In this document: positions 10,337 through 52,714 of the stretch, in pieces | Position numbering within the stretch: position 1 is the first letter of the stretch | How the letters are laid out: each line of letters starts with the position of its first letter | Source: a virus | Virus record (IMG/VR): IMGVR_UViG_3300027746_000697 | Span: 52,632 to 116,631 of that record | DNA length: 64,000 nt | Reading direction: 5' to 3' (one strand) | Position numbers and translations under genes: made by a program | Notes under the pieces: generated by a model | What the model was told of the DNA's origin: nothing | What the model saw: only the letters and a program-made list of their open reading frames with translations | The model's database searches: none

Positions 10337-10402
10337 ATGGCCCAGAAGAAAAGAACACCAATGGAACGTGCGGCTCGCCGTGCTACCAAAAAGAAACGTT
10401 GA
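10337..10402 (+). CDS. 21-aa basic peptide MAQKKRTPMERAARRATKKKR
   Basis: GGAG SD; fills the gap between csp and tmRNA. Confidence 0.5.
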   Translation: MAQKKRTPMERAARRATKKKR

Positions 10403-10411
10403 TTTAAAAAT

Positions 10412-10805
10412 TGTTGTAATCCCTTCAAAACGAAGGCATGTTGGACGAGGGTTCGATTCCCTCCATCTCCACCAAAAAGGTTTTTAATGGATCAGTGGGA
10501 CGAGTACTTTCCTCCTTTGAATTTATGGAACTATAGCCTACATTGGCAATGGTTCAATGATCCAATAGAAGAAGAAAATCTTTCTGATGGGGATGACCAG
10601 GTTTCGACAGCGTGAGATAGTAGAGACGGCAACACGATAGGCGATGGACGTAATCCAAGCAAAAACCGTAAATGCAAACGCAAATACATTTGAGTATTTC
10701 AAAGTTCCAGCTTCAGTAGCTTTTTCAGCTAATGATGCAGACTTTGCAATGGTAGCCTAAGAAACTACAACTCCGGGGCTGGTTAGCCTTGTAAACCAAT
10801 AACCA
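10412..10805 (+). ncRNA. ssrA: Circularly permuted two-piece tmRNA
   Basis: T-arm plus CATCTCC-A-CCA ending at 10474 precedes GGGGATG..TTCGAC (10589); G3-U70 pair; tag 10674-10760 ANANTFEYFKVPASVAFSANDADFAMVA*; outer ends approximate. Confidence 0.9.
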
Positions 10806-10832
10806 AAAAAGGCACTTTCGAGTGCCTTTTTT
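10806..10832 (+). terminator. Intrinsic terminator after tmRNA
   Basis: AAAAAGGCACT-TTCG-AGTGCCTTTTTT. Confidence 0.85.
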
Positions 10833-10903
10833 CTTGACCTCATGCAATATAGAATATATACTAGTCTTAGTGACTGACGTCATTATATTAAAAGGAATTA
10901 ATT

Positions 10904-12218: not shown

Positions 12219-12299
12219 AGTGGTTGACTATGATGCTGAAAGGCATTATAATCAACCACTGAGTGGTTGACTATGATGCTGAAAGGCATTATAATCAAC
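12219..12299 (+). repeat. 38-bp direct repeat (two copies), each containing a sigma70 promoter
   Basis: AGTGGTTGACTATGATGCTGAAAGGCATTATAATCAAC at 12219 and 12262; TTGACT-17-TATAAT. Confidence 0.85.
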
Positions 12300-12567: not shown

Positions 12568-12839
12568 AGACGCTGAGATTGCCAAGGCAGTCGTTGAAGC
12601 AAAGTGTGGAGATACCAGTAACGAGGACTGGGCTAGGCACTATAAACATCTAGCAAACGGGCGGCCTGTAGGATGAAGCACTTCTTCTAGTGTGAAAAAT
12701 TACAGCGTATTAAAGCATATTCCAAAACTAGAATGTTTAGGGGATAAGGCCACAAGCCGAGTATGCTTTAATACACACTCTTCACCTCCGCTTTGAACGC
12801 GGTTGACATCATAGAGGGAGAGTGTTACAATTAAAGTAT

Positions 12840-12925
12840 GGAGTAGAAGCATCAATGGTGATGCAGTGGACTGTAAATCCGCCGTCGTAATGGCACGCCT
12901 GGTTCGATCCCAGGATACTCCACCA
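12840..12925 (+). tRNA. tRNA-Tyr(GTA)
   Basis: Cloverleaf, loop CTGTAAA, long variable arm, CCA. Confidence 0.92.
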
Positions 12926-12931
12926 AGTTTA

Positions 12932-13006
12932 GGTCTGTTCGTATAGAGGTTATTACTGTGGATTGTCTATCCACTTACGGGGGTTCGATTCCCCCACAGA
13001 CCGCCA
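12932..13006 (+). tRNA. tRNA-Asp(GTC)
   Basis: Loop TTGTCTA, G73, CCA. Confidence 0.9.
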
Positions 13007-13013
13007 ATTTTAT

Positions 13014-13089
13014 TCCGCAGTAGCTCAGTTGGTAGAGTAGATGACTGTTAATCATTTGGTCCCTGGTTCGAGCCCAGGCTGTGGAGCCA
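13014..13089 (+). tRNA. tRNA-Asn(GTT)
   Basis: Loop CTGTTAA, CCA. Confidence 0.95.
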
Positions 13090-13148
13090 ATAAAGTAATC
13101 AAATATACTAGTTTGTCAATAAATATTGAAATATTTAAGGATTAGTGT

Positions 13149-13895
13149 ATGCTTGATTACGAATGGATGTTTTATTTTTATTTAATAATATGGTTTATAT
13201 CTTGCAGTGTTTATGCAATTTACATTCACAGAGCACATGCTCATGGATCAATTACTGTAAGTTCAAACTTTAGTTATTTTGCTAGAACGTGGTTATGGTA
13301 CATAGGATTTTGGTATCCTGGTGATTCTGTTCGTTCATTTGTAGCCGGACATAGAAAGCATCATGCTACTTCTGATACCGTTGATGACCCGCATAGTCCA
13401 TTGTATTATAGCAAACAAGAACTGTTCTTTACACAAAAACCGAGTCCAACTAGTCCAGCGTATTATTTAACACCTGATGAAATTGAAAAATGGGCATCGG
13501 ATGTGCCTATATACACGGATTGGTTAGAACACCAATTTGCAAAATATTCTAACTATAGATATCCAGTTGGCGGAATTTTAGTGTTAATAATGTTTGGAGT
13601 TTGGGGACCAGTTGTTGGGTGTTTCCTGTTATTTTTTATACAGATACTCCTTCGGTCACATAATTATCTAAGTCATACAATAGGTTATCGAAATAGACCA
13701 GCAAAAGGTGCTGATCGTTCTCGAAATATATTTCCAATAGGACTGTTGTTTTTTGGAGAAGAACTTGCGGCAAACCATCATGATGATACCACTAAAGCAA
13801 AATTTTCAGAAAAATGGTGGGAATTTGATCTTACATGGGGAATTATCGTGATTTTGAAATTTTTTGGTCTAGTTAAATTAAACTCTACCAAATAA
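13149..13895 (+). CDS. Fatty acid desaturase (second paralog)
   Basis: HRAHAH, HRKHH, NHH boxes; WWEFDLTW. Confidence 0.88.
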   Translation: MLDYEWMFYFYLIIWFISCSVYAIYIHRAHAHGSITVSSNFSYFARTWLWYIGFWYPGDSVRSFVAGHRKHHATSDTVDDPHSPLYYSKQELFFTQKPSPTSPAYYLTPDEIEKWASDVPIYTDWLEHQFAKYSNYRYPVGGILVLIMFGVWGPVVGCFLLFFIQILLRSHNYLSHTIGYRNRPAKGADRSRNIFPIGLLFFGEELAANHHDDTTKAKFSEKWWEFDLTWGIIVILKFFGLVKLNSTK

Positions 13896-13903
13896 TATAA
13901 TAC

Positions 13904-13979
13904 GGGGGTGTAGCTCATTTGGGAGAGCGCCTGCTTTGCAAGCAGGATGTAGCAAGTTCGATCCTTGTCACCTCCACCA
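13904..13979 (+). tRNA. tRNA-Ala(TGC)
   Basis: Loop TTTGCAA, G3-U70, CCA. Confidence 0.95.
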
Positions 13980-13984
13980 ATTTT

Positions 13985-14058
13985 CCTCTTGTAGTTAAAT
14001 GGTATAACAGTCGGCTGATAACCGGCCATTACAAGTTCGATTCTTGTCGAGAGGACCA
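13985..14058 (+). tRNA. tRNA-Ile(GAT)
   Basis: Loop CTGATAA, CCA. Confidence 0.92.
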
Positions 14059-14063
14059 AGTTT

Positions 14064-14124
14064 AGGATAGCAACAGCAAATTTAAAAACTCTTTTATTGA
14101 AAAAAAGCCAAAAATGCTATCCTG
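14064..14124 (+). ncRNA. CAGCA-stem small RNA, copy 1
   Basis: AGGATAGCA/TGCTATCCT terminal stem, ACAGCAAA, internal CTTTT-ATTGAAA-AAAAG hairpin. Confidence 0.7.
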
Positions 14125-14132
14125 TTTTATAC

Positions 14133-14207
14133 ACTGTCGTCGTCTAGTGGCTAGGACGCTACCCTTTCAAGGTGGAGAAGCGAGATCGATACTCGTCGAC
14201 AGTACCA
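14133..14207 (+). tRNA. tRNA-Glu(TTC)
   Basis: Loop CTTTCAA; atypical T-loop ATCGATA; CCA. Confidence 0.85.
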
Positions 14208-14214
14208 ATTTTAT

Positions 14215-14292
14215 CTCTGTGTAATGTCAATCTGGTAGACGGCCTGATCTGGAGTCATGAGGATGTACGTTCGAATCGTACCATGGAGACCA
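14215..14292 (+). tRNA. tRNA-Pro(TGG), atypical
   Basis: C1-G72, A73; loop TCTGGAG (C33, A37); mismatch in anticodon stem. Confidence 0.65.
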
Positions 14293-14297
14293 ATTTT

Positions 14298-14371
14298 GCC
14301 CTTTTAGTATAATGGTATTACACCTGTTTTGTAATCAGGTTACGGCAGTTCGATTCTGTCATAGGGCACCA
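14298..14371 (+). tRNA. tRNA-Thr(TGT)
   Basis: Loop TTTGTAA, CCA. Confidence 0.88.
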
Positions 14372-14376
14372 AGTTT

Positions 14377-14432
14377 AGGATGCGAACAGCAAATTCAAAA
14401 ATTCAACTTTTAATTGAAAAATAAGCATCCTG
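14377..14432 (+). ncRNA. CAGCA-stem small RNA, copy 2
   Basis: AGGATGC/GCATCCT stem, ACAGCAAA, internal TTCAA-CTTTTAA-TTGAA hairpin. Confidence 0.7.
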
Positions 14433-14451
14433 TTTTATAAAAGGAAATCTA

Positions 14452-14580
14452 ATGGCACACAAGCAACAAGGTATTCTAACACGCAGTCCCCAATGGTGGA
14501 AACATCTTAAGGATTGGAAACGAGTGTTCTGGAAATCAGAACGCCAAGCACAAAAACGAAATATCAACAAAGGAGAATGA
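14452..14580 (+). CDS. 42-aa basic Trp-rich hypothetical peptide
   Basis: AAGGA SD; MAHKQQGILTRSPQWWKHLKDWKRVFWKSERQ.. Confidence 0.6.
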   Translation: MAHKQQGILTRSPQWWKHLKDWKRVFWKSERQAQKRNINKGE

Positions 14581-14662
14581 CATGAAACGTGCTAAACGTT
14601 AGTGTCATCTTTGACCCCGTATGGTCTTAGATGGCACGTAAAAGAAAATATTTACGATCCAT

Positions 14663-14737
14663 CCACGCTAAACTTTAGTGGCGAAGTACCCGGCTCTTAA
14701 CCGGACTAACTGAGTTCGATTCTCAGAGCGTGGACCA
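14663..14737 (+). tRNA. tRNA-Lys(CTT)
   Basis: Loop CTCTTAA, CCA. Confidence 0.85.
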
Positions 14738-14740
14738 TAT

Positions 14741-14815
14741 GGGGGTATAATTCAAAGGCTAGAATAGCCGGCTTTTAACCGGTCTATCAGGGTTCGAGTC
14801 CCTGTGCCCCTACCA
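14741..14815 (+). tRNA. tRNA-Lys(TTT)
   Basis: Loop CTTTTAA, CCA. Confidence 0.92.
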
Positions 14816-14916
14816 TATAAAAACACATTACGGCGTAGGTCCAGAGATAACTTCATACTCGGCCGTAGCAGGATACAGAAGCAGACCTAAACCTGTTGTA
14901 TAGTGTGGTTCTATAT

Positions 14917-14991
14917 GGTAACGTAGCATAACGGTCGTGCACCTCCTTCATACGGAGCAAGGTGTGAGTTCAAATCTCACCGTTACCACCA
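14917..14991 (+). tRNA. tRNA-Met or Ile2 (CAT), elongator type
   Basis: Loop TTCATAC, G1-C72, CCA. Confidence 0.85.
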
Positions 14992-15029
14992 AACACAAAA
15001 ATAAATATTCCACAACAGAGGATATGTGT

Positions 15030-15641
15030 ATGGGTGTACATGGATATTTTTCAACACCAATTTATGATAGTATGCTTGTGGGCGATGAATTAATTGCTGT
15101 ACAAGCGGAGTTGGATCAAGTGGTTGCAGATTTGAAAGCAAAAGATTCATTTCAACATAATGAGTCTTGGTTACCAAACACACATAAATTATCCGACACA
15201 ACTTTTGCGCAGAATTTATTATTAGATTACAACACTAAACATTTTGTAGATGCTTTGAAATTTCATGTTTTTGAATATGTAAAAATTTTAGATGTGCCTA
15301 AAAATAAAGTTGAGCAATTCAGCATTAGACAGTCTTGGATGACCAACACCGGAAAACACGAGTTTGCACATACACACAATCATGGAAGTGTTGATATTGC
15401 AGGCGTGTATTACTACAAAACAAGTGGTAAAGATGGTAATATAAATTTCATGACTCCAGTTTCACAGTTTTCAACATATCTATTAGAACATCTCCCAAAC
15501 AACATATCTTACGAGCCTAAAGTTGGCAAGTTCATTTTGTTTCCAGGTTGGATAGATCACGGCGTTCCTGCAAATTACACAGATGATGAACGCATTAGTA
15601 TTTCGTTTAATATAAATTTTAAACGTCCAGAATTTTCATAA
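15030..15641 (+). CDS. Putative Fe(II)/2OG oxygenase
   Basis: HTHNH..GVYY..LFPGWIDHGV..RISISFN; start reassigned downstream of the tRNA. Confidence 0.85.
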   Translation: MGVHGYFSTPIYDSMLVGDELIAVQAELDQVVADLKAKDSFQHNESWLPNTHKLSDTTFAQNLLLDYNTKHFVDALKFHVFEYVKILDVPKNKVEQFSIRQSWMTNTGKHEFAHTHNHGSVDIAGVYYYKTSGKDGNINFMTPVSQFSTYLLEHLPNNISYEPKVGKFILFPGWIDHGVPANYTDDERISISFNINFKRPEFS

Positions 15642-15643
15642 GA

Positions 15644-15888
15644 TGTTAGTAAAAGACTCAAGGTGTTCGGAAGTTTCGAAAGAGAAGATATAAAAGGTCG
15701 GAAGCCTTTAATATTTGGCAGTTATAAATTGCACTTCAGCCGGGCGGTGGATCAGGGCATACAGTCTGGGAGATCCTCAAAGGCAAATGACGCTCCATGT
15801 TTGCTAGACAAGTAGAGCGCGACTGTATGCCGCGGGTAGCCAAGTTTTCCTTGACAGGGACCAAAACTCTCAGAGTCTTTTACTAACA
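15644..15888 (+). ncRNA. Unclassified structured RNA, about 245 nt
   Basis: 16-bp perfect closing stem TGTTAGTAAAAGACTC/GAGTCTTTTACTAACA; internal GCATACAGTC/GACTGTATGC helix. Confidence 0.6.
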
Positions 15889-15895
15889 CTTTTAT

Positions 15896-15970
15896 GCAGG
15901 ATTAATTCAGTGGTAGAATGTCTCGTTGCCAACGAGAATGTCAGGAGTTCGACCCTCCTATCCTGCTCCA
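15896..15970 (+). tRNA. tRNA-Gly(GCC)
   Basis: Loop TTGCCAA, U73, CCA. Confidence 0.9.
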
Positions 15971-16022
15971 TAATATGGCTCCCAGACTTGTTCACATAGT
16001 GTCCTCTGGGAGTTTTCTTTTT

Positions 16023-16084
16023 AGGATAGCAACAGCAAACATTAAAAATCTTTTCTTGAAAAAAAGCCAAAAAATGCTATCCTG
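16023..16084 (+). ncRNA. CAGCA-stem small RNA, copy 3
   Basis: Near-identical to copy 1; internal CTTTT-CTTGAAA-AAAAG hairpin. Confidence 0.7.
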
Positions 16085-16093
16085 TTTTATTGT

Positions 16094-16169
16094 TGGGGTG
16101 TCGCCTAGTGGCCTAAGGCAACGGTCTTTGAAATCGTCATCATGAGTTCGAATCTCATCTCCCCTGCCA
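16094..16169 (+). tRNA. tRNA-Gln(TTG)
   Basis: Loop CTTTGAA, G73, CCA. Confidence 0.88.
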
Positions 16170-16175
16170 AATTAT

Positions 16176-16251
16176 ATCCCTGTGGTGAAATAGGAAATCA
16201 TCAAACCCTGCGAAGGTTTAGTCTCAGGTTCAACTCCTGATGGGGATGCCA
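16176..16251 (+). tRNA. tRNA-Arg(GCG)
   Basis: Stem AAACC/GGTTT, loop CTGCGAA, CCA. Confidence 0.85.
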
Positions 16252-16257
16252 ATCTAT

Positions 16258-16333
16258 GGTGTCTTTAGTGTAGTGGCCTGCACCCTGCTCTGTGAAAGCG
16301 GTAGTACCGGATCGATACCGGTAAGGCACCCCA
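16258..16333 (+). tRNA. tRNA-His(GTG)
   Basis: G-1/C73, loop CTGTGAA. Confidence 0.9.
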
Positions 16334-16342
16334 ATTTTTAAT

Positions 16343-16434
16343 GCCAGCGAGACTTGACAGTCAGAGAGGTTTTATAAACCTTTTAGCGCCAGATTAGCGT
16401 TCTTGAGAGGGTTTGATTCCCTCCGCTGGTACCA
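16343..16434 (+). tRNA. tRNA-Ile(TAT)-like, atypical (mini D-arm, long variable region)
   Basis: Acceptor GCCAGCG/CGCTGGT-A-CCA, loop TTTATAA. Confidence 0.65.
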
Positions 16435-16436
16435 AT

Positions 16437-16510
16437 GCTCTTATAGTTAAATGGAAGAACGCCTCTTTGGTATGGAGGTAATGAAAGTTCGATTCTTTCT
16501 GAGAGCACCA
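16437..16510 (+). tRNA. tRNA-Thr(GGT)
   Basis: Loop TTGGTAT, CCA. Confidence 0.88.
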
Positions 16511-16515
16511 AACAT

Positions 16516-16591
16516 GCTACTTTAGCTGATGTGGTCATAGCGGCGGTCTGAAGAACCGTTGAAAGAGGTTCGATTCCTCTAGGTAGCACCA
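16516..16591 (+). tRNA. tRNA-Phe(GAA)
   Basis: Loop CTGAAGA, CCA. Confidence 0.9.
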
Positions 16592-16597
16592 CTCAAT

Positions 16598-16674
16598 GCC
16601 CCAGTGGCGCAATTGGTAGACGCGGCTCTCTCAAAAGGAGTGTGTTCCCCGTTCGAGTCGGGGCTGGGGTACCA
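16598..16674 (+). tRNA. tRNA-Leu(CAA), short variable loop
   Basis: Loop CTCAAAA, Leu-type D-loop, A73. Confidence 0.87.
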
Positions 16675-16692
16675 TATTATTAGGAGATTGAT

Positions 16693-16899
16693 ATGAAAGC
16701 AGTTACATTTAAAAATCGTATGAACAATGAACAATTTCTATGTGATGACGTTCGAACTGTTCAGCATATTGATGGAGTAGAATATTTACTTGTGCATAAG
16801 TTAGCACAAGATAGAAAATTTCTAATGCGTAAAGATGCATTAGAGAAAGTTAATACCGCTGTCGTTCAACGGAGAGGACAACACTCTTCTAAAGTGTGA
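16693..16899 (+). CDS. Hypothetical protein (3' end runs into tRNA-Arg)
   Basis: Strong AGGAG SD. Confidence 0.65.
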   Translation: MKAVTFKNRMNNEQFLCDDVRTVQHIDGVEYLLVHKLAQDRKFLMRKDALEKVNTAVVQRRGQHSSKV

Positions 16900-16929
16900 A
16901 TGAGGGTTCGACTCCTTCCAGCGGTGCCA
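16855..16929 (+). tRNA. tRNA-Arg(TCT)
   Basis: Loop CTTCTAA, CCA. Confidence 0.9.
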
Positions 16930-16936
16930 AGAATTA

Positions 16937-17011
16937 CGGCCATTGGTGAAATGGATATCATCTCTGTCTTCGAAACAGAGGGTGTGGGTTCGATTCCTGC
17001 ATGGCCGGCCA
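16937..17011 (+). tRNA. tRNA-Arg(TCG)
   Basis: Loop CTTCGAA, CCA. Confidence 0.9.
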
Positions 17012-17078
17012 TTTAACGGTTGACAACTATAGTAATTGGCAATACAATTAAGTCATGTTTAACCAATGAAAGAAAAAC

Positions 17079-17633
17079 ATGAATCATTTACGTACTAGAT
17101 ATAAAGCTGATTGGTACGATAAAAAGATCGAACAGAATAAGGTAATTCAGGACGATCTTATTAGTATTATTAACAAGTATAAGGAACCTAATTTTCCTTG
17201 GTCAGAAGATATGCTGAGATATCTCGAGAATGAAAACTTACTCGAAATTGCCATACCTACAGTTAACAAAGGTATTAGTGTAGTGTTAGGGGAAGGTATG
17301 GATTTTGATAATCATGGGGATGCTAAACTATCAATCGCAAGATTTCATTCAGGCGGTTCTAGTTACGCATCTGGCATTAAATGTAAGTATAAGGAATTTA
17401 TATTAGCATACGTATATGAACCTATACAAAAGAAATCGTATTATTTTGCCTTTCCAAAAAAGTATAACGAACATACTATTCCGTTTGATAAAAACACAGG
17501 TGCACCAAAGCGTAATAATTATATGTGGGACTACGAATGTTCCACGTTTGAAGAAATGGCAAACTACAATATAGGATTAGGACTAGTTGAACAAATACCT
17601 AAAAATACATTTGACAATTTCTTTTTTGCATAG
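17079..17633 (+). CDS. Hypothetical protein
   Basis: ORF with its own TTGACA-17-TACAAT promoter at about 17019. Confidence 0.7.
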   Translation: MNHLRTRYKADWYDKKIEQNKVIQDDLISIINKYKEPNFPWSEDMLRYLENENLLEIAIPTVNKGISVVLGEGMDFDNHGDAKLSIARFHSGGSSYASGIKCKYKEFILAYVYEPIQKKSYYFAFPKKYNEHTIPFDKNTGAPKRNNYMWDYECSTFEEMANYNIGLGLVEQIPKNTFDNFFFA

Positions 17634-18049: not shown

Positions 18050-18139
18050 GGAAGCGTGGCAGAGTCCGGCTTATTGCAACAGTCTTGAAAACTGTCGGCT
18101 CGAAAGGGTCCGTGAGTTCAAATCTCACCGCTTCCGCCA
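18050..18139 (+). tRNA. tRNA-Ser(TGA)
   Basis: Loop CTTGAAA, long variable arm, G73. Confidence 0.95.
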
Positions 18140-25428: not shown

Positions 25429-25689
25429 ATGAAACAACGCATATTCAATCAAGTACGTAAACCGCTTGACCTTAGTCGCGGCCCTGGAATTGATACAGAA
25501 ATTTGTACCGTTCAAGCTGGCGGAAATAGATTCAATCTGGTGCTGATTGCCAGCGAACGTGCAAGAGAAATCCGCCGTCAAAATAAAGAAAGTGACAAGC
25601 GTGAACATGTTCACAGCATTGTGACAGCACTGGAAGAAATTCAACGTGGTGAAATCGAACCCCGTAAGTATCTCAACAAAGTGAGATAA
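25429..25689 (+). CDS. rpoZ: RNA polymerase omega subunit homolog
   Basis: NRFNLVLIASERAREI..ALEEI..G; sigma70 promoter at 25380-25408. Confidence 0.8.
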   Translation: MKQRIFNQVRKPLDLSRGPGIDTEICTVQAGGNRFNLVLIASERAREIRRQNKESDKREHVHSIVTALEEIQRGEIEPRKYLNKVR

Positions 25690-25777: not shown

Positions 25778-25854
25778 GTGGGTGTGCCGCTGAATGGTTA
25801 GGCCCCGGATTGCAAATCCGTATTATGCAGGTTCGAGTCCTGTCACCCACTCCA
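25778..25854 (+). tRNA. tRNA-Cys(GCA)
   Basis: Loop TTGCAAA, U73. Confidence 0.88.
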
Positions 25855-25858
25855 AATT

Positions 25859-25987
25859 AGGATACTAACAGCATATTTTACATTCCAAACTTTGAGTTGT
25901 AGGTTCGAATCCTACCTTCCAATCAAGCCTAAACAGCAGTTGGTTGTAGATCAATGGTAGATCAAAAGTCGTAAAAAATGTATCCTG
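25859..25987 (+). ncRNA. CAGCA-stem RNA copy 4, with circularly permuted tRNA domain (YrlA/Y-RNA-like)
   Basis: AGGATAC/GTATCCT ends; T-arm GTAGG-TTCGAAT-CCTAC precedes D-arm GATC-AATGGTA-GATC; ACTTT/AAAGT stem. Confidence 0.75.
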
Positions 25988-26002
25988 TTTAACCAAAATA
26001 TA

Positions 26003-26031
26003 GTGACAAGAGACAGTAGAGATACTATAAT
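26003..26031 (+). promoter_or_regulatory. Sigma70-like promoter for the ncRNA-DUF2828 operon
   Basis: GTGACA-17-TATAAT. Confidence 0.65.
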
Positions 26032-26065
26032 AGTCGTATAGCAAGTAACACTGCTAAGAAGTTTT

Positions 26066-26216
26066 AGGATCGGTTCAGCAACATCAATTAAACTGATGGT
26101 CGGCTTAATCGGCAGGTACTGGTGGAGGGGCTTGTCCCCATTGAAACTGGTGCTGAGCCGCGTCGACGAGGTGAGTTAGTTTTCTCACTTGAAACAAAAA
26201 GGCAAAAACGATCCTG
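26066..26216 (+). ncRNA. CAGCA-stem RNA copy 5
   Basis: AGGATCG/CGATCCT ends, TTCAGCAA, GC-rich structured insert. Confidence 0.65.
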
Positions 26217-26224
26217 TTAGTTTT

Positions 26225-26454
26225 GGATGACTACAGCAATTTAAACTACTAACGTAACTGCTATAGAAGGTGGTCGAAGGACACAGTAGAAATACTGTTC
26301 TAGAAATAGACGCTCAAGAAATAGATAGACTGGCAAAGCACCAGATATGATTCGCATACAGAAAAACATGCGATAGGCAACATGAATGTTGCTAGGGTCT
26401 GGGTGCCGTAATTGGCCAGACCAGAATACTAAACAAATTGGCACGATCATCCTG
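26225..26454 (+). ncRNA. CAGCA-stem RNA copy 6
   Basis: GGATGA/TCATCC ends, ACAGCAA, several hairpins including GAAA tetraloops. Confidence 0.65.
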
Positions 26455-26464
26455 TTAAAGTTTT

Positions 26465-26519
26465 AGAATGTTAACAGCAACTTTAAATTTCACTATAATC
26501 GAAAATAAAATACATTCTG
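26465..26519 (+). ncRNA. CAGCA-stem RNA copy 7 (in the 5' leader of the DUF2828 gene)
   Basis: AGAATGT/ACATTCT ends (compensatory change), ACAGCAA. Confidence 0.65.
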
Positions 26520-26533
26520 TAAAGGTAATCAAA

Positions 26534-28160: not shown

Positions 28161-28352
28161 ATGGGTTTCAAAATTTTGGGCAGAACACAAGACATCATGC
28201 AAGGCTACGGACCTATCCCAAAAATGGAGGGCCCTTTTTACTTTAACGGACGTATCTTGTATTATGATCCAAAAGAAGGTAAGTACTGGGATCCCAAGAC
28301 GGATTTTTATGTTCCGCATGATGAATATTTTCGAATAGTAGGATTGATGTAA
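28161..28352 (+). CDS. Hypothetical protein
   Basis: AGGAG SD; sigma70 promoter at about 28103. Confidence 0.7.
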   Translation: MGFKILGRTQDIMQGYGPIPKMEGPFYFNGRILYYDPKEGKYWDPKTDFYVPHDEYFRIVGLM

Positions 28353-28819
28353 TGCCAAAATGCTATCAATTAATTGGAGTTCCTGCCGCTGGTAAAAGTA
28401 CTTGGGTTAATAGTCAAGAATGGACTGTGGGTATGGAGTATGTAAGTACAGATCATCATGTGGAAGTTTATGCCAAGGAGCAAGGTAAGACTTATTCCGA
28501 AGTATTCACAGAATACATGCCCACAGCAGTTGAACTAATGGCACAAGAAGTTGTAGAAGCACGAGAAGCAGGTCGAGATATAATTTGGGATCAAACCAGC
28601 ACCACTGTTAAAAGTCGTGCTCGTAAGTTTAACATGTTGCCGGACTACTATCATATTGCGGTAGTGTTTCGAACACCCGAGCATAAAGAACTAGTTCGCA
28701 GATTAACTAGTCGTTGGGAGTCTGGAAAAATCGTGCCTGAACATGTTGTTGCTAGCATGATTGCCAGTTGGGAAGAACCTACTGAAGAAGAAGGCTTCAA
28801 AGAAATTTGGAGAGTTTAA
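28352..28819 (+). CDS. P-loop kinase (AAA_33/polynucleotide-kinase-like)
   Basis: GVPAAGKST, STD, DQT..R motifs. Confidence 0.85.
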   Translation: MPKCYQLIGVPAAGKSTWVNSQEWTVGMEYVSTDHHVEVYAKEQGKTYSEVFTEYMPTAVELMAQEVVEAREAGRDIIWDQTSTTVKSRARKFNMLPDYYHIAVVFRTPEHKELVRRLTSRWESGKIVPEHVVASMIASWEEPTEEEGFKEIWRV

Positions 28820-28828
28820 GGAAAAATT

Positions 28829-29074
28829 ATGACTATTAGAGAGTATGAAAGTATACAAGGCGATAACTTAGAAGAATCTGATATGGCTCAACTGTTGTCG
28901 ACCACCGCAAACGCAGACGCGGTAGCTCGAATAAGAGCACAACTGCCAACAGGTCCTAGTTTAAGTCATTGCGATGAATGTGGGGAAGAAATCCCCAAAG
29001 CAAGACAACTAGCAGTTAAAGGCTGTAAAATGTGTATTGATTGTCAAATCGTAAGTGAACGTATGAAACGTTAA
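28829..29074 (+). CDS. DksA/TraR C4 zinc-finger protein
   Basis: CDECGEEIPKAR..CKMCIDCQ. Confidence 0.88.
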   Translation: MTIREYESIQGDNLEESDMAQLLSTTANADAVARIRAQLPTGPSLSHCDECGEEIPKARQLAVKGCKMCIDCQIVSERMKR

Positions 29075-29083
29075 GGAGGCAGT

Positions 29084-29596
29084 ATGCCGTGGATTGAAAA
29101 TATTCCGTTGGAAAATGTAGCAAAAGGACAGCATCACGATTGCGGCGCCAACAGTATGCTGATACAGATTTCAGATCATGACATGGCGTTTCCCTCACCT
29201 AAACATCAGTTCAAAGAAGTACATCAATTTACTTTTTTGGATATTGAAGAAGATGGTATGACCAATACCGGTGGAGGAATGATTGATCTAAGTGAGTTTG
29301 CTATTACAGATGAACAAGCAGAACAACTTGTCCGTTTGTTGCAACACGCATGGGAAAATCGTATGAATGTTGTGGTTCACTGTCACGCTGGCATTTGCAG
29401 ATCGGGTGCGGTTTGTGAGGTTGGAGTCATGATGGGATTCAATGATTGCGAGCGTTTCCGTAGTCCTAATCTTTTGGTCAAACACAAAATGATGCGACTA
29501 TTGGGTTGGACGTATGACAGCGAAGAAAAGCCATATGATGTAAATGGCACTACCAACGAATGGGGGTTTATTACCCCAAATAAAGTAGTTGACTAA
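29084..29596 (+). CDS. Cys-based (tyrosine/dual-specificity-like) phosphatase
   Basis: HCHAGICRS CX5R motif. Confidence 0.85.
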   Translation: MPWIENIPLENVAKGQHHDCGANSMLIQISDHDMAFPSPKHQFKEVHQFTFLDIEEDGMTNTGGGMIDLSEFAITDEQAEQLVRLLQHAWENRMNVVVHCHAGICRSGAVCEVGVMMGFNDCERFRSPNLLVKHKMMRLLGWTYDSEEKPYDVNGTTNEWGFITPNKVVD

Positions 29597-29644
29597 TTAC
29601 TGTGTAGATGCTATAATACTACATTAAACAGTGAAAGGCATCAA

Positions 29645-29815
29645 ATGGCTGGCAAAGCAAAATCGGTTTACTTGACGGTGACTACCATGCAACACAAATC
29701 CGTGTTTCATCGTGTGTTTTTTAATGCTAAAGACTTTAACGAGTATGTTAATTCCGAAGAGTTCAAAGCAAAATATCCAACAACTGAATTTAAAATTGTA
29801 AAAGAAACTTACTAA
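29645..29815 (+). CDS. Hypothetical protein (56 aa)
   Basis: MAGKAKSVYL..; sigma70 promoter at about 29589; not in the ORF track. Confidence 0.6.
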   Translation: MAGKAKSVYLTVTTMQHKSVFHRVFFNAKDFNEYVNSEEFKAKYPTTEFKIVKETY

Positions 29816-29830
29816 CAAAAGGAGCATAAT

Positions 29831-30436
29831 ATGCCAAGTGTATTCTTAGTAAGCGACACGCACTTTGGACACATGGGTGTATGCCGCTTCACACGTAACG
29901 ATGGTGTTACAAAACTTCGCCCATGGGACTCAGCAGAGGAAATGGACGAAGCAATGGTTAAAGCGTGGAACGAACGGGTAAAACCCACTGACAAAGTTTA
30001 CCATTTAGGTGACGTTGTTATCAATCGTAAAGCGTTAAAAATCTTATCCAGGCTTAACGGTGATAAAGTGTTAATTCGTGGTAACCACGATATCTTTAGG
30101 GACGACGAGTATCGCTTGTACTTTAGAGAACTTAGGGCTTATCACGTTATGAATGGCATGATTCTTAGCCATATTCCGTTACATTCGGATTCCTTGGGTC
30201 GTTTTGGAACCAACATTCACGGACATACTCACGCAAATCGTGTGAAACGAGCCCGTGGAGTTGATGCTAGAACTGGAGCTGTTCTGTACAGCGAAGAGAA
30301 CGATGTGCGCTACCATTGTGTATGCGTGGAACAAACTCCGGACTTTGCTCCAATTCTGTTTGAAGATGTCATAAAGAACATCGAAGCAGAAGGTGGATCA
30401 ATAGGATTCAAGAGTGGCAACGGACCTACTATGTAA
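29831..30436 (+). CDS. Calcineurin-like metallophosphoesterase
   Basis: DTHFGH, GD, GNHD, H, HGHTH. Confidence 0.92.
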   Translation: MPSVFLVSDTHFGHMGVCRFTRNDGVTKLRPWDSAEEMDEAMVKAWNERVKPTDKVYHLGDVVINRKALKILSRLNGDKVLIRGNHDIFRDDEYRLYFRELRAYHVMNGMILSHIPLHSDSLGRFGTNIHGHTHANRVKRARGVDARTGAVLYSEENDVRYHCVCVEQTPDFAPILFEDVIKNIEAEGGSIGFKSGNGPTM

Positions 30437-52100: not shown

Positions 52101-52714
52101 TATACTTTTCCTATAATCATCCATCGTTTGTATAATGGTAATTCTAGTTCGCCAGCCCATAGTACATTGATATCACATTGTTTCTTAAACTCTTCTAAAC
52201 TGCTAGCTGTACGAACATGCTCTGGAATATTATAATTATTACTTTGTAATACAAGTAACGAGTTGTGAGGAACTCCAGACTTCCATAAGTCATATTGATC
52301 TTGCGTAATATGTTCGCAACTGGTATTGATTATGATATTTGCATCGCTTCTTATAGCACACATATCCAAAGTAACTGCTTTAAACTGCCCTTGCATTTCT
52401 TCTTGCTTATTCATCATAGTAGCAATTGGTTCGCATACTGGATCTATATCAATGCTACGAATGTTGGCAACAGGAATTCTACTTTGAAATAACATACTGG
52501 CCAGCACTCCAACCCACCCGCCATGAATATCAATGGAAAACGGCTTGGGCATTGTACAATCAACTTTTGGATGTACTGCTAGTTCCAATGCATCTATCAA
52601 CCATTCTTTGCTTTTAAGTTGTCCACTCCAAAACGCATCCATGGTCCGCATAGGATCAGGGCTTTGTCGGATAGCTTGCATCCAATAGTGTAAGTGTTCT
52701 GTATCAATTTTCAT
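52100..52714 (-). CDS. Class I methyltransferase-like protein
   Basis: GGWVG..SIDID..INTSCEH. Confidence 0.7.
   Translation of the reverse strand: MKIDTEHLHYWMQAIRQSPDPMRTMDAFWSGQLKSKEWLIDALELAVHPKVDCTMPKPFSIDIHGGWVGVLASMLFQSRIPVANIRSIDIDPVCEPIATMMNKQEEMQGQFKAVTLDMCAIRSDANIIINTSCEHITQDQYDLWKSGVPHNSLLVLQSNNYNIPEHVRTASSLEEFKKQCDINVLWAGELELPLYKRWMIIGKV

Follow-up and report, generated by a model that had tools for sequence, protein, structure and literature searches.

A phage family of Y-RNA-like RNAs with a putative anticodon-arm mimic and a possible role as nuclease bait

The tRNA gene array of a virus, analyzed here in a stretch of 64,000 nucleotides (IMG/VR record IMGVR_UViG_3300027746_000697, positions 52,632 to 116,631; the whole stretch is called the window below), contains three short repeated elements that span positions 14064-16084 from copy 1 to copy 3. 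They are the smallest members of a phage family of Y-RNA-like RNAs, and we describe them as a real variant of the tRNA-mimicking Y RNAs. Comparison with homologs makes it probable that the one hairpin they carry is a selected mimic of a tRNA anticodon arm, mounted on a scaffold for a Ro60-like partner protein. The full statement, in which a Y-like family displays anticodon-arm mimics on the Ro-like protein as decoys or tethers for nucleases, goes further and falls a little short of what we would call probable.

The minimal RNAs and the format of their hairpin

A covariance model (R1) was built from 17 minimal members of the family. The three copies have the following coordinates, parts and model scores:

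14061-14131, + strand: copy 1, minimal member; terminal stem 14064-14071/14116-14123, AACAGCAA motif 14072-14079, hairpin 14091-14107, tail TGTTTTA; R1 model 78.9 bits
14374-14439, + strand: copy 2, minimal member; terminal stem 14377-14383/14426-14432, motif GAACAGCAA 14384-14392, hairpin 14402-14418; R1 model 75.5 bits
16020-16091, + strand: copy 3, minimal member; terminal stem 16023-16030/16076-16083, motif 16031-16038, hairpin 16050-16066, next tRNA-Gln start 16094; R1 model 79.9 bits

Direct reading of the sequence bears out the preliminary description, which a model had made from the letters alone, in that three copies lie here, each with a 5-bp stem and a 7-nt loop. The hairpins read CTTTT/ATTGAAA/AAAAG in copy 1, TTCAA/CTTTTAA/TTGAA in copy 2 and CTTTT/CTTGAAA/AAAAG in copy 3. 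All three loops have U33, A37 and A38, and that of copy 1 has A32. The loop of copy 2 is of the Lys(UUU) type and that of copy 3 of the Ser(UGA) type, and the identity with loops of the phage's own tRNAs that had been pointed out holds when the loops are compared within the window (CTTTTAA in tRNA-Lys(ttt), 14741-14815; CTTGAAA in tRNA-Ser(tga), 18050-18139). The GC-rich anticodon stems of the phage tRNAs show no relation to the mimic stems, which are AU-rich. Copy 1 is neighboured by tRNA-Ile (end 14058) and tRNA-Glu (start 14133), and copy 2 is placed after tRNA-Thr (end 14371).

From stem to stem the copies measure 60, 56 and 61 nt, or one more if a flanking U.G pair is counted. Their 5' ends read TTTAGGAT-NNN-AACAGCAA and their 3' ends NNN'-ATCCTGTTTTA, where NNN' pairs with NNN, and the single small hairpin is their whole interior structure. 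The 20-nt 5' end occurs three times in the window at up to three mismatches (0.02 expected), and a looser 5' motif occurs seven times (0.27 expected), always on the + strand. The looser motif yields seven forward and no reverse matches in the whole 116,631-base record, and a reversed control pattern yields none. RNAfold places the terminal stem in the minimum-energy fold of all three copies, with z-scores of -1.4, -2.2 and -1.7 for copies 1, 2 and 3. Neither ARAGORN nor Rfam RF00005 calls a tRNA cloverleaf in copies 1-3. A layout as an armless tRNA is conceivable, in which the terminal stem would be a 7-bp "acceptor" and stretches of about 18 nt and 6-12 nt would replace the D arm and the T arm, respectively; the minimal RNAs have no CCA or discriminator-like end.

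To survey homologs, relatives of the Ro60-like protein were collected from viral contigs, where 256 of 257 candidate stretches were confirmed, and the best 80 of these 256 relatives (87-94% identity) were taken with up to 10 kb of flank each. The minimal members are of two kinds, the GGAT-arm kind to which copies 1-3 belong, and a gene-proximal kind with GAATGTT or GGTTATT arms that lies directly before the open reading frame (ORF) of the protein. Among 72 distinct GGAT-arm interiors, 70 can form a stem of at least 4 bp closing a 7-nt loop (500 shuffles gave a mean of 21.7 and a maximum of 33), and 51 can do so with at least 5 bp (shuffle mean 7.6). U33 together with R37 is found in 59 interiors (shuffle mean 4.3, maximum 13). 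The enrichment of 7-nt YU-NNN-RA loops with varying anticodons that had been proposed as a check is found in the GGAT-arm members, 42 of 72 interiors fitting against a shuffle mean of 0.9 and a maximum of 5, although the sequences are related, so that all these shuffle controls overstate significance and independence.

The format is also seen when the hairpin is chosen blind to its loop, by the longest stem. This selection gave 53 distinct cargos with 39 distinct loops, of which 28 have U33, 29 have R37, 22 have both and 17 have C32, on an interior background of T 0.32, A 0.47, C 0.14 and G 0.08. The loop positions with the highest entropy are 34 and 35, and those with the lowest are 33 and 37. 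Judged from these loops, the U33/R37 bias is strong, if not universal. The usual loop consists of C32, U33, three variable bases, A37 and A38; for comparison, 27 of the 32 real tRNA loops of the window fit YU-NNN-RA. The Lys(UUU)-type loop is the commonest, with 8 of the 26 distinct YU-NNN-RA cargos.

Eight orthologs with a GGATGTT arm and near-invariant flanks could be aligned. Their loop is CTTTTAA in six and CTTGTAA in two, and their stems are TTAGA/TCTAA, TTGAA/TTCAA, TTTGA/TCAAA, CTAGA/TCTAA and CTCAA/TTGAA. One base pair thus occurs as AU, UA, CG and GC and its neighbour as GC and AU, with no one-sided change at either; four orthologs leave the outermost pair open. Paired cells make up 96.6% of this alignment, compared to 27-43% when the partner strand is slid. 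In the census of family members described below, the Lys-type loop is combined with at least eight stems and five terminal arms that differ in sequence, and the CTTTT/AAAAG stem carries the varying loops CTTGAAA, CTGTAAA, CTCGAAA and ATTGAAA. The caveat that TTGAAA might be a protein-binding motif fails here because homologs vary the sequence of loop and stem and keep the hairpin format; a conserved protein site at TTGAAA was rejected. Comparison shows that a hairpin in anticodon-arm format is under selection in the tRNA-array members of this clade.

The wider family and its Ro60-like partner

The scaffold consists of a covarying terminal stem of 8-10 bp, followed by an asymmetric internal loop with CAGCAA on the 5' strand and an A-rich 3' strand, and a CUGUU tail. 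The window holds seven members, all on one strand, four of which lie directly upstream of the DUF2828 gene (25856-26523):

25856-25994, + strand: copy 4, mid-size; T arm and D arm, a YrlA-like mimic of the tRNA elbow; R1 model 34.6 bits
26063-26221, + strand: copy 5, larger, about 156 nt; GGATCGG arm; slot kept in relatives
26221-26459, + strand: copy 6, largest, about 236 nt; GGATGAC arm
26462-26523, + strand: copy 7, gene-proximal minimal member; GAATGT/ACATTC arm; R1 model 53.7 bits
26534-27943, + strand: Ro60-like gene; Pfam DUF2828 and DUF7788, phrog_850 "RNA-binding protein"; 469 aa

Copies 4-7 lie at most 680 nt upstream of the Ro-like gene, and copies 1-3 lie 10.4-12.5 kb upstream on the same strand. 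Copy 4 is placed after a tRNA that ends near 25854; copy 7, with a hairpin loop of 9 nt, ends 11 nt ahead of the Ro-like ORF. Terminal arms within the window differ and yet are complementary (GGATAGC/GCTATCC, GGATGC/GCATCC, GGATAC/GTATCC, GGATCG/CGATCC, GGATGA/TCATCC and GAATGT/ACATTC). As an observation in its own right, a 9-10-nt loop motif such as AAGCATATC or ACTATAATC is kept in 38 distinct relatives of the gene-proximal member (26462-26523), which could be a leader used by the protein to regulate its own mRNA. An 86-aa ORF (25429-25689, + strand) that matches an RNA polymerase Rpb6/omega domain (E 4.6e-10) immediately precedes the tRNA-Val/tRNA-Cys pair and this cluster of Y-like RNAs.

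Across the window and the 80 related loci, the R1 model gives 144 matches at E<=1, of which 143 lie on the strand of the Ro-like gene; for the motif, the corresponding numbers are 273 on the gene strand versus 14 on the other. A census of all loci by regular expression found 250 distinct members. Their 5' arms come in 28 distinct sequences and every one has a 3' arm to match, which is partly true by construction because the census required complementary arms. The R1 model search and the strand bias serve as independent checks. A further control with the arm reversed but not complemented matched in 90 of 273 cases, compared to 253 of 273 for the true arm, and is confounded by the TAGG of the next tandem copy. 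The CAGCAA core is present in 248 of the 250 distinct members, and the motif variants among them are AACAGCAA (136), TACAGCAA (82) and TTCAGCAA (14). By size, 118 members have at most 85 nt, 47 have 100-140 nt, 41 have 150-190 nt and 44 have 200 nt or more. An R1 search of five large related records gave two to five matches per genome, which are lower bounds since 150 of the 200-511 candidates per record were scored.

A pattern scan of viral contigs gave at least 134 matches in at least 127 stretches, at least 23 of them with a complementary 3' arm. Among the arm-matched hits listed, 19 of 23 read as true members (14 distinct sequences) and four as chance matches with long coding-like inserts or overlapping arms. 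When the same pattern was applied to one genome per bacterial or archaeal species, none of the 120 matches listed had a matching arm. Judging by these scans, a family with this scaffold is viral. A pseudoknot or switch formed by AACAG and the CUGUU tail was considered and rejected: the two A's are U's in Ralstonia phage RSP15 and in copy 5 while the tail is unchanged, and there are no linker bases.

The larger members relate the family to whole tRNAs. A T-loop hairpin is present in 37 of the 47 distinct members of 100-140 nt, and in 17 of the 47 there is, in addition, a YU-NNN-RA hairpin on the 5' side of the T arm, with a closed acceptor-like hairpin and a D arm coming after. By this arrangement, the 17 are circularly permuted mimics of a whole tRNA, opened between the D arm and the anticodon arm. 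They share loops with the minimal members (CTTGAAA in five, CTTCTAA in five and CTGTAAA in two), and the slot before the Ro-like gene holds a mid-size member in some relatives and a minimal member in others. The minimal members thus look like the anticodon arm of a permuted mimic kept alone.

The neighbouring protein had been called Ro-like, and structure prediction agrees. Sequence searches gave no match to Pfam TROVE at E<=10, the only matches being DUF2828, DUF7788 and a weak VWA_2 (E 0.15), and phmmer against PDB sequences gave none at E<=1. An AlphaFold2 model from a 75-sequence alignment (pLDDT 92.3, pTM 0.91) combines a helical-repeat ring with a von Willebrand A domain, the fold of Ro60. 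In a Foldseek search of the PDB with this model, ranks 1-13 are all Ro60/TROVE entries (Xenopus, human, D. radiodurans and Thermus phage phiLo; E 8e-8 to 3e-5, query TM 0.38-0.66), followed by von Willebrand A domains. The term Ro-like is thus supported by predicted fold, not by sequence. D275, S277 and S279, which we take to be the DxSxS motif of the metal site, are invariant in the 75 sequences. The protein family is represented in 706 phage records (tblastn) and in 6,215 clusters at 50% identity (E<=0.001). The protein's best named relative comes from a Synechococcus phage, and the DNA itself was found in freshwater metagenomes.

Downstream of the Ro-like gene lie candidates for the healing of RNA ends:

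28352-30436, + strand: P-loop kinase AAA_33 (28352-28819), dual-specificity-phosphatase-like protein (29084-29596) and metallophosphoesterase (29831-30436)

The kinase has a weak polynucleotide-kinase PHROG match. Going by their family names, the kinase, phosphatase and phosphoesterase could heal cleaved RNA ends, and a kinase and a metallophosphoesterase are likewise found downstream of the Ro-like homolog in phage DLP_6. Further away, at 32491-54958 on both strands, at least seven radical-SAM genes (some with SPASM), at least eight Asp/Arg-hydroxylase-like paralogs and an AMP-binding enzyme form a cluster that looks like a peptide- or macromolecule-modification island. At 1219-2437 and 10349-10851, genes for heme oxygenase and a ferredoxin-dependent bilin reductase stand beside Hsp20 and an Hsp70 fragment, and there is a circularly permuted tmRNA gene as well.

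Named phages were searched with the covariance model, and family RNAs were found beside or near the protein gene in four cultured phages (RSP15, DLP_6, S13 and Bas63) by model and direct reading. Sequence searches of named phages did not reveal them: megablast of 13900-16700 returned only a 59-nt tRNA-sized match, and blastn with copy 3 gave nothing convincing, its best match (E 0.6-2) falling inside annotated ORFs. The annotation of the four genomes either leaves the elements out or has "hypothetical protein" in their place. Ralstonia phage RSP15 has three minimal and at least two larger members in its tRNA array (best model E 9.7e-6); the minimal cargos are a 7-nt loop CCTTAAC, a hairpin with the 5-nt loop ATTGG and a 7-nt loop CCGTTAA. 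Stenotrophomonas phage DLP_6 has covarying arms, the motif TTGCAGC and 12-nt loops, with a T arm in one member. One cargo in Cronobacter phage S13 is CAAAT/CTTAAAC/ATTTG. Directly after its Ro-like gene, S13 (NC_028773, 5896-6138) is annotated with a 121-nt "tRNA-Ser" and a 113-nt "tRNA-OTHER", sizes that point to tRNA-like Y RNAs rather than tRNAs.

In E. coli phage Bas63 (MZ501086), a Felixounavirus, bas63_0130 (gp130) has 39% identity to the window protein (E 1e-83). Just after gp130, the spacers between tRNA-Glu and tRNA-Met and between tRNA-Met and tRNA-Asn each hold one unannotated family-like RNA with the CAGCAA motif (about 2262-2345 and 2430-2505 of the MZ501086 stretch), with the covarying arms AGACCAA/TTGGTCT and AGACCGT/ACGGTCT. 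One cargo is a hairpin of 5 bp with the 7-nt loop CACGAAA, and the other has a 5-nt loop. This assignment rests on the reading of motif and arms because the R1 model scores just 17.3 bits (E 0.75) at these spacers. The PhageMaP preprint on Bas63 reports that gp130 resembles Ro60 structurally, lies upstream of tRNA genes and counters the ppl defence, and that gp130 alone, expressed from a plasmid or inside T7, is enough to do so (PMC11482910). According to the same text, ppl is a system of an ATPase and a PHP-domain protein for which the authors propose DNA degradation, and they speculate that some annotated Bas63 tRNAs are Y RNAs (PMC11482910). Bas63 links the RNA family to an experimentally supported counter-defence protein.

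Proposed mechanism and rival explanations

ARAGORN finds 32 tRNA genes and the permuted tmRNA between 10.3 and 25.9 kb of the window, nearly all on the + strand, and Rfam is in agreement. Two side observations concern the array itself. A tRNA-shaped sequence with a CCA end between tRNA-Glu and tRNA-Thr (14216-14288, + strand) scores 25.7 bits with the Rfam tRNA model (gathering score 29) and is not called by ARAGORN; it is a decayed or unusual tRNA. At 16343-16434 (+ strand), ARAGORN calls a 92-nt tRNA-Ile(tat) with its anticodon at position 31, which is absent from the Rfam tRNA matches at the gathering score. According to ARAGORN calls on the related loci, a tRNA ends 3-6 nt upstream of 48 of the 77 distinct GGAT-arm minimal members, a tRNA starts within 7 nt of the 6-nt tail in 44, and 33 are flanked on both sides. 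For the gene-proximal type, the flanking-tRNA figure is 1/41.

Upstream of the array, one promoter-like site was found:

12803-12831, + strand: sigma-70-like promoter match (TTGACA, 17-nt spacer, TACAAT; a consensus match only), just upstream of the tRNA array with copies 1-3

There is no terminator-like site on the + strand in 12700-17100, which fits one long transcript. Separately, a 38-nt unit TTGAC ... TATAAT occurs before the array as two exact repeats 43 nt apart (12219-12299, + strand), and once more in diverged form after tRNA-Arg(tcg) (17015-17052, + strand); these units are likely phage promoters that bound the transcription units of the array. Four metatranscriptome runs gave contigs over the array, among them exact matches at copy 1 (13919-14314) and at copy 3 (16020-16172 and 16058-16170). 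Such libraries can hold DNA, and contigs show no ends, strand or level, so the exact cover is compatible with transcription and is no proof of it; 15028-15500, part of an ORF, has no contig cover in the four runs and was not used as evidence. The highest contig depth of the examined region (263-569 in one library) falls on a non-coding stretch of about 245 nt between a 2OG-Fe(II) oxygenase ORF and tRNA-Gly (15650-15895, + strand). Its ends are long and complementary (TTAGTAAAAGACTC ... GAGTCTTTTACTAA), its interior is GC-rich and Rfam gives nothing for it below E 1; the stretch may be one more structured phage RNA.

We propose that the RNAs would be transcribed together with the tRNA array and released when the upstream tRNA matures at its 3' end and RNase P cleaves the downstream tRNA. 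Release by the tRNA-maturing enzymes is suggested because the RNAs sit 3-6 nt after the CCA of a tRNA and a few nucleotides before the next. The Ro60-like DUF2828 protein would then bind the platform of stem and CAGCAA and hold out the anticodon-arm mimic, an idea that follows the analogy of Ro60 bound to Y RNA, in which, according to the available part of PMC4201824, it is mostly the 5' strand of the stem that is read by the protein. As the minimal RNAs have no acceptor end and no elbow, they cannot be charged or decoded and must act, if at all, by binding or by being cleaved. The displayed arm would engage proteins that read anticodon loops, the likeliest targets being host nucleases of the PrrC, PARIS or retron PtuAB type. 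The RNA may serve as a decoy; alternatively, it may be a tether by which the nuclease or a damaged tRNA is brought to the Ro-like particle and to the end-healing enzymes encoded nearby.

Among the bait types, Lys-UUU was read most often, and Ser, Tyr, Asn, Thr, Arg and Cys were read as well. Colicins E5 and D target Tyr/His/Asn/Asp and Arg tRNAs. In the accessible portions of the literature, tRNA-Lys(UUU) is a target of PrrC and PARIS, tRNA-Tyr is a target of retron Eco7 PtuAB, and phages answer such nucleases with tRNAs of their own (PMC11464382, PMC11555353); for PARIS AriB, the anticodon stem-loop is described as the decisive feature recognized (PMC11464382). Anticodon nucleases are plausible readers of the mimic by analogy, a choice that comes from context, namely the Lys and Tyr targets, the end-healing neighbourhood and the counter-defence activity of gp130. 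The nuclease-bait function as such is possible but doubtful. Its most ambitious form, which we regard as unlikely, is a modular, RNA-programmed counter-defence particle in which the Ro60-like protein would take up interchangeable RNAs from the tRNA array, each with one anticodon-arm bait. A swap of three bases would retarget it to the nuclease of the host, and the particle would soak up the nuclease or deliver it, or a damaged tRNA, to the end-healing enzymes.

A number of observations weigh against a displayed anticodon-arm bait. Thirty of the 72 GGAT-arm interiors fail the strict YU-NNN-RA format, among them near misses with A32 or C33 (ATTGAAA of copy 1, ATGCAAA, ACGTTAA and CCGTTAA). Other cargos are clearly of a different kind, such as the conserved TTTCA/ATTGG/TGAAA with its 5-nt loop, which is also found in RSP15, and GG-containing loops of 5-8 nt. 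The gene-proximal type has 9-10-nt loops (e.g. AAGCATATC) and a YU-NNN-RA hairpin in only 2 of 38 distinct interiors, so that the earlier view of the minimal members as anticodon-like stands for the type of copies 1-3 (70 of 72 with a 7-nt loop) and falls for that of copy 7. Distant homologs are mixed as well (CTTAAAC in S13, CCTTAAC and CCGTTAA in RSP15, CACGAAA and a 5-nt loop in Bas63, 12-nt loops in DLP_6). The inner stems had been suspected of being weak and AU-rich, and rightly so: the minimum-energy folds of copies 1 and 3 do not contain them and copy 2 is paired differently, which means that the inner hairpins rest on comparison, not on energy.

The loop identities carry little weight because 18 of the 64 possible CU-NNN-AA loops occur in the window's own tRNAs. 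The match to the phage tRNA-Lys and tRNA-Ser loops is a by-product of the CU-NNN-AA format, without specific copying. On one scaffold the "anticodon" differs between close relatives (TGA, GTA, CGA); a format that is kept while the triplet moves could mean retargeting, and drift could account for it too. Nucleases that recognize modified wobble bases may also cleave an unmodified mimic poorly. Finally, the sole tested function of the protein family requires no phage RNA and no known tRNA nuclease, since gp130 alone counters ppl in the experiments of the available text (PMC11482910).

Some of the same observations would be expected if the minimal copies were reduced relics, that is, deletion derivatives of the permuted tRNA mimics in which only the scaffold matters, to occupy, gate or stabilize the Ro-like protein, and the hairpin is a leftover without a target of its own. 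Mid-size members hold the same loops (CTTGAAA, CTGTAAA, CTTCTAA) within a whole tRNA mimic, the slot before the Ro-like gene is occupied by either type depending on the relative, the triplet differs between close relatives and there are non-anticodon-like cargos. However, the orthologs keep the hairpin by compensatory changes and conserve its loop, the 7-nt loop and the U33/R37 bias hold across 39 distinct loops on several unrelated stems, and a neutral leftover in sequence of 79% A+T is expected to decay fast; we hold this explanation to be clearly improbable. We would say the same of a bait for other readers of the anticodon arm, by which tRNA-modifying enzymes, aminoacyl-tRNA synthetases or the ribosome would be recruited or titrated, and the modification of host or phage tRNAs or translation would be tuned. 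The anticodon format serves it equally well, and genes for putative modifying enzymes are set between those of the array, namely 2OG-Fe(II) oxygenases, a radical-SAM/B12 protein and a methyltransferase whose PHROG matches to "tRNA methyltransferase" are weak. Also in its favour, U33-G34-U35 or A36-A37-A38 is present in several mimic loops, and known modification enzymes use these as determinants. Against it, no specific enzyme is linked to the RNAs, and Ser-type loops are common, whereas seryl-tRNA synthetase recognizes its tRNAs without reading the anticodon. The single experimental datum on the protein family, as given in the available text, is counter-defence (PMC11482910).

The tight sandwich between tRNAs (48, 44 and 33 of 77) and a single long transcript without a terminator-like site would also suit processing punctuation, i.e. 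spacers that aid the folding and cutting of the array transcript as entry sites for RNase E or RNase III or as insulators, with no later role. This is quite improbable in our opinion, as the same scaffold heads RNAs that cluster at the Ro-like gene and not between tRNAs, most tRNA junctions of the array have no such element, and neither CAGCAA nor the anticodon-like format is necessary for it. Least credible of all is a DNA-level or simple sequence signal, with TTGAAA as a protein-binding or -35-like motif and the elements as promoters, terminators or miniature inverted-repeat mobile elements. It can point to a weak promoter-like match over copy 3 (TTGAAA, 16-nt spacer, TATCCT; 9 of 12) and to the inverted terminal arms. 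But homologs do not keep TTGAAA, the + strand lacks a terminator-like site in the region scanned, and no target-site duplications were seen. The elements keep strictly to the strand that holds the tRNAs and the gene of the Ro-like protein (143 of 144 model matches, 273 versus 14 motif matches), and the arms covary as RNA pairs, including positions compatible with G.U. A terminator or promoter role of the elements was rejected on the promoter and terminator scan.

Relation to known RNAs and significance

The closest known RNAs are the YrlA-type Y RNAs of bacteria and mycobacteriophages (RF02553), as described in the available parts of PMC4201824 and 10.1101/312249. The RNAs found here resemble them in that they are small RNAs on the strand of a nearby Ro60-type gene (copies 4-7 adjacent to it, 143 of 144 matches on its strand), in the terminal stem with a short conserved 5' motif, in the tRNA-mimicking module (the T and D arms of copy 4) and in the number of RNAs per locus; those of M. 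smegmatis are processed from a common precursor (PMC4201824). However, the 5' motif is NNCAGCAA here and GNCGAAN0-1G in YrlA (PMC4201824). Copy 4 scores 26.9 bits (E 0.002) with the YrlA model, far from its gathering score of 69, and copies 1-3 have no match to RF02553 at E<=1. A domain of T and D arms is absent from copies 1-3 and present in copy 4 and, as far as the T-loop hairpin is concerned, in 37 of the 47 mid-size members. The partner is a DUF2828/DUF7788 protein without a Pfam TROVE match, and copies 1-3 lie within a tRNA array, 10.4-12.5 kb from its gene. While YrlA "lacks the anticodon loop" in the wording of the accessible text (10.1101/312249), members of the family described here show an anticodon-arm look-alike, and the minimal ones nothing else. 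The short second Y RNAs (YrlB of S. Typhimurium and M. smegmatis, Yrn2 of D. radiodurans) are also small, Ro-bound and without a full tRNA-like domain, and stand beside a larger Y RNA, but the available part of their description presents them neither as hairpins of anticodon format nor as set between tRNA genes (PMC4201824).

Bas63 has a homolog of the window protein directly upstream of its tRNA array, and Y RNAs have been guessed among its tRNA genes; in the available text, the authors pointed to annotated tRNA genes, whereas the family-like RNAs found here lie in the spacers between tRNAs (PMC11482910). Its cargo is also less anticodon-like (A33, or a 5-nt loop), and gp130 works against ppl without phage RNAs (PMC11482910). 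The replacement tRNAs of phages, such as T5 tRNA-Lys against PARIS (PMC11464382), and T5 tRNA-Tyr against retron Eco7 and tRNA-Lys against PrrC (PMC11555353), are likewise RNA answers to anticodon-arm nucleases that are encoded in phage tRNA arrays. As far as the available texts describe them, however, they are whole functional tRNAs that restore translation, unlike the RNAs described here, which have neither acceptor end nor elbow.

Rfam 15 has no family for these RNAs. A search of the full-text literature, whose coverage leaves out most subscription journals, found no description of RNAs partnered with the DUF2828 family or of Y RNAs reduced to an anticodon arm, and the Thermus phage Ro60 paper makes no mention of YrlA, tRNA-like RNAs or DUF2828. 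What was already known is that tRNA-mimicking Y RNAs occur beside Ro60 genes, that phages have Ro60-like genes and, from the available text, that gp130 acts in counter-defence by a mechanism left unexplained (PMC11482910). New is a concrete, conserved RNA family paired with a Ro protein of the DUF2828 type, with members inside tRNA arrays that are reduced to an anticodon-arm look-alike. Since Bas63 grows on E. coli K-12 and has the family, the hypothesis is directly testable. If the bait idea is true, some of the "extra" sequence in phage tRNA arrays would be explained, Ro-like phage proteins would gain a mechanism, and an RNA-decoy arm would stand beside the known replacement-tRNA strategy against anticodon nucleases.

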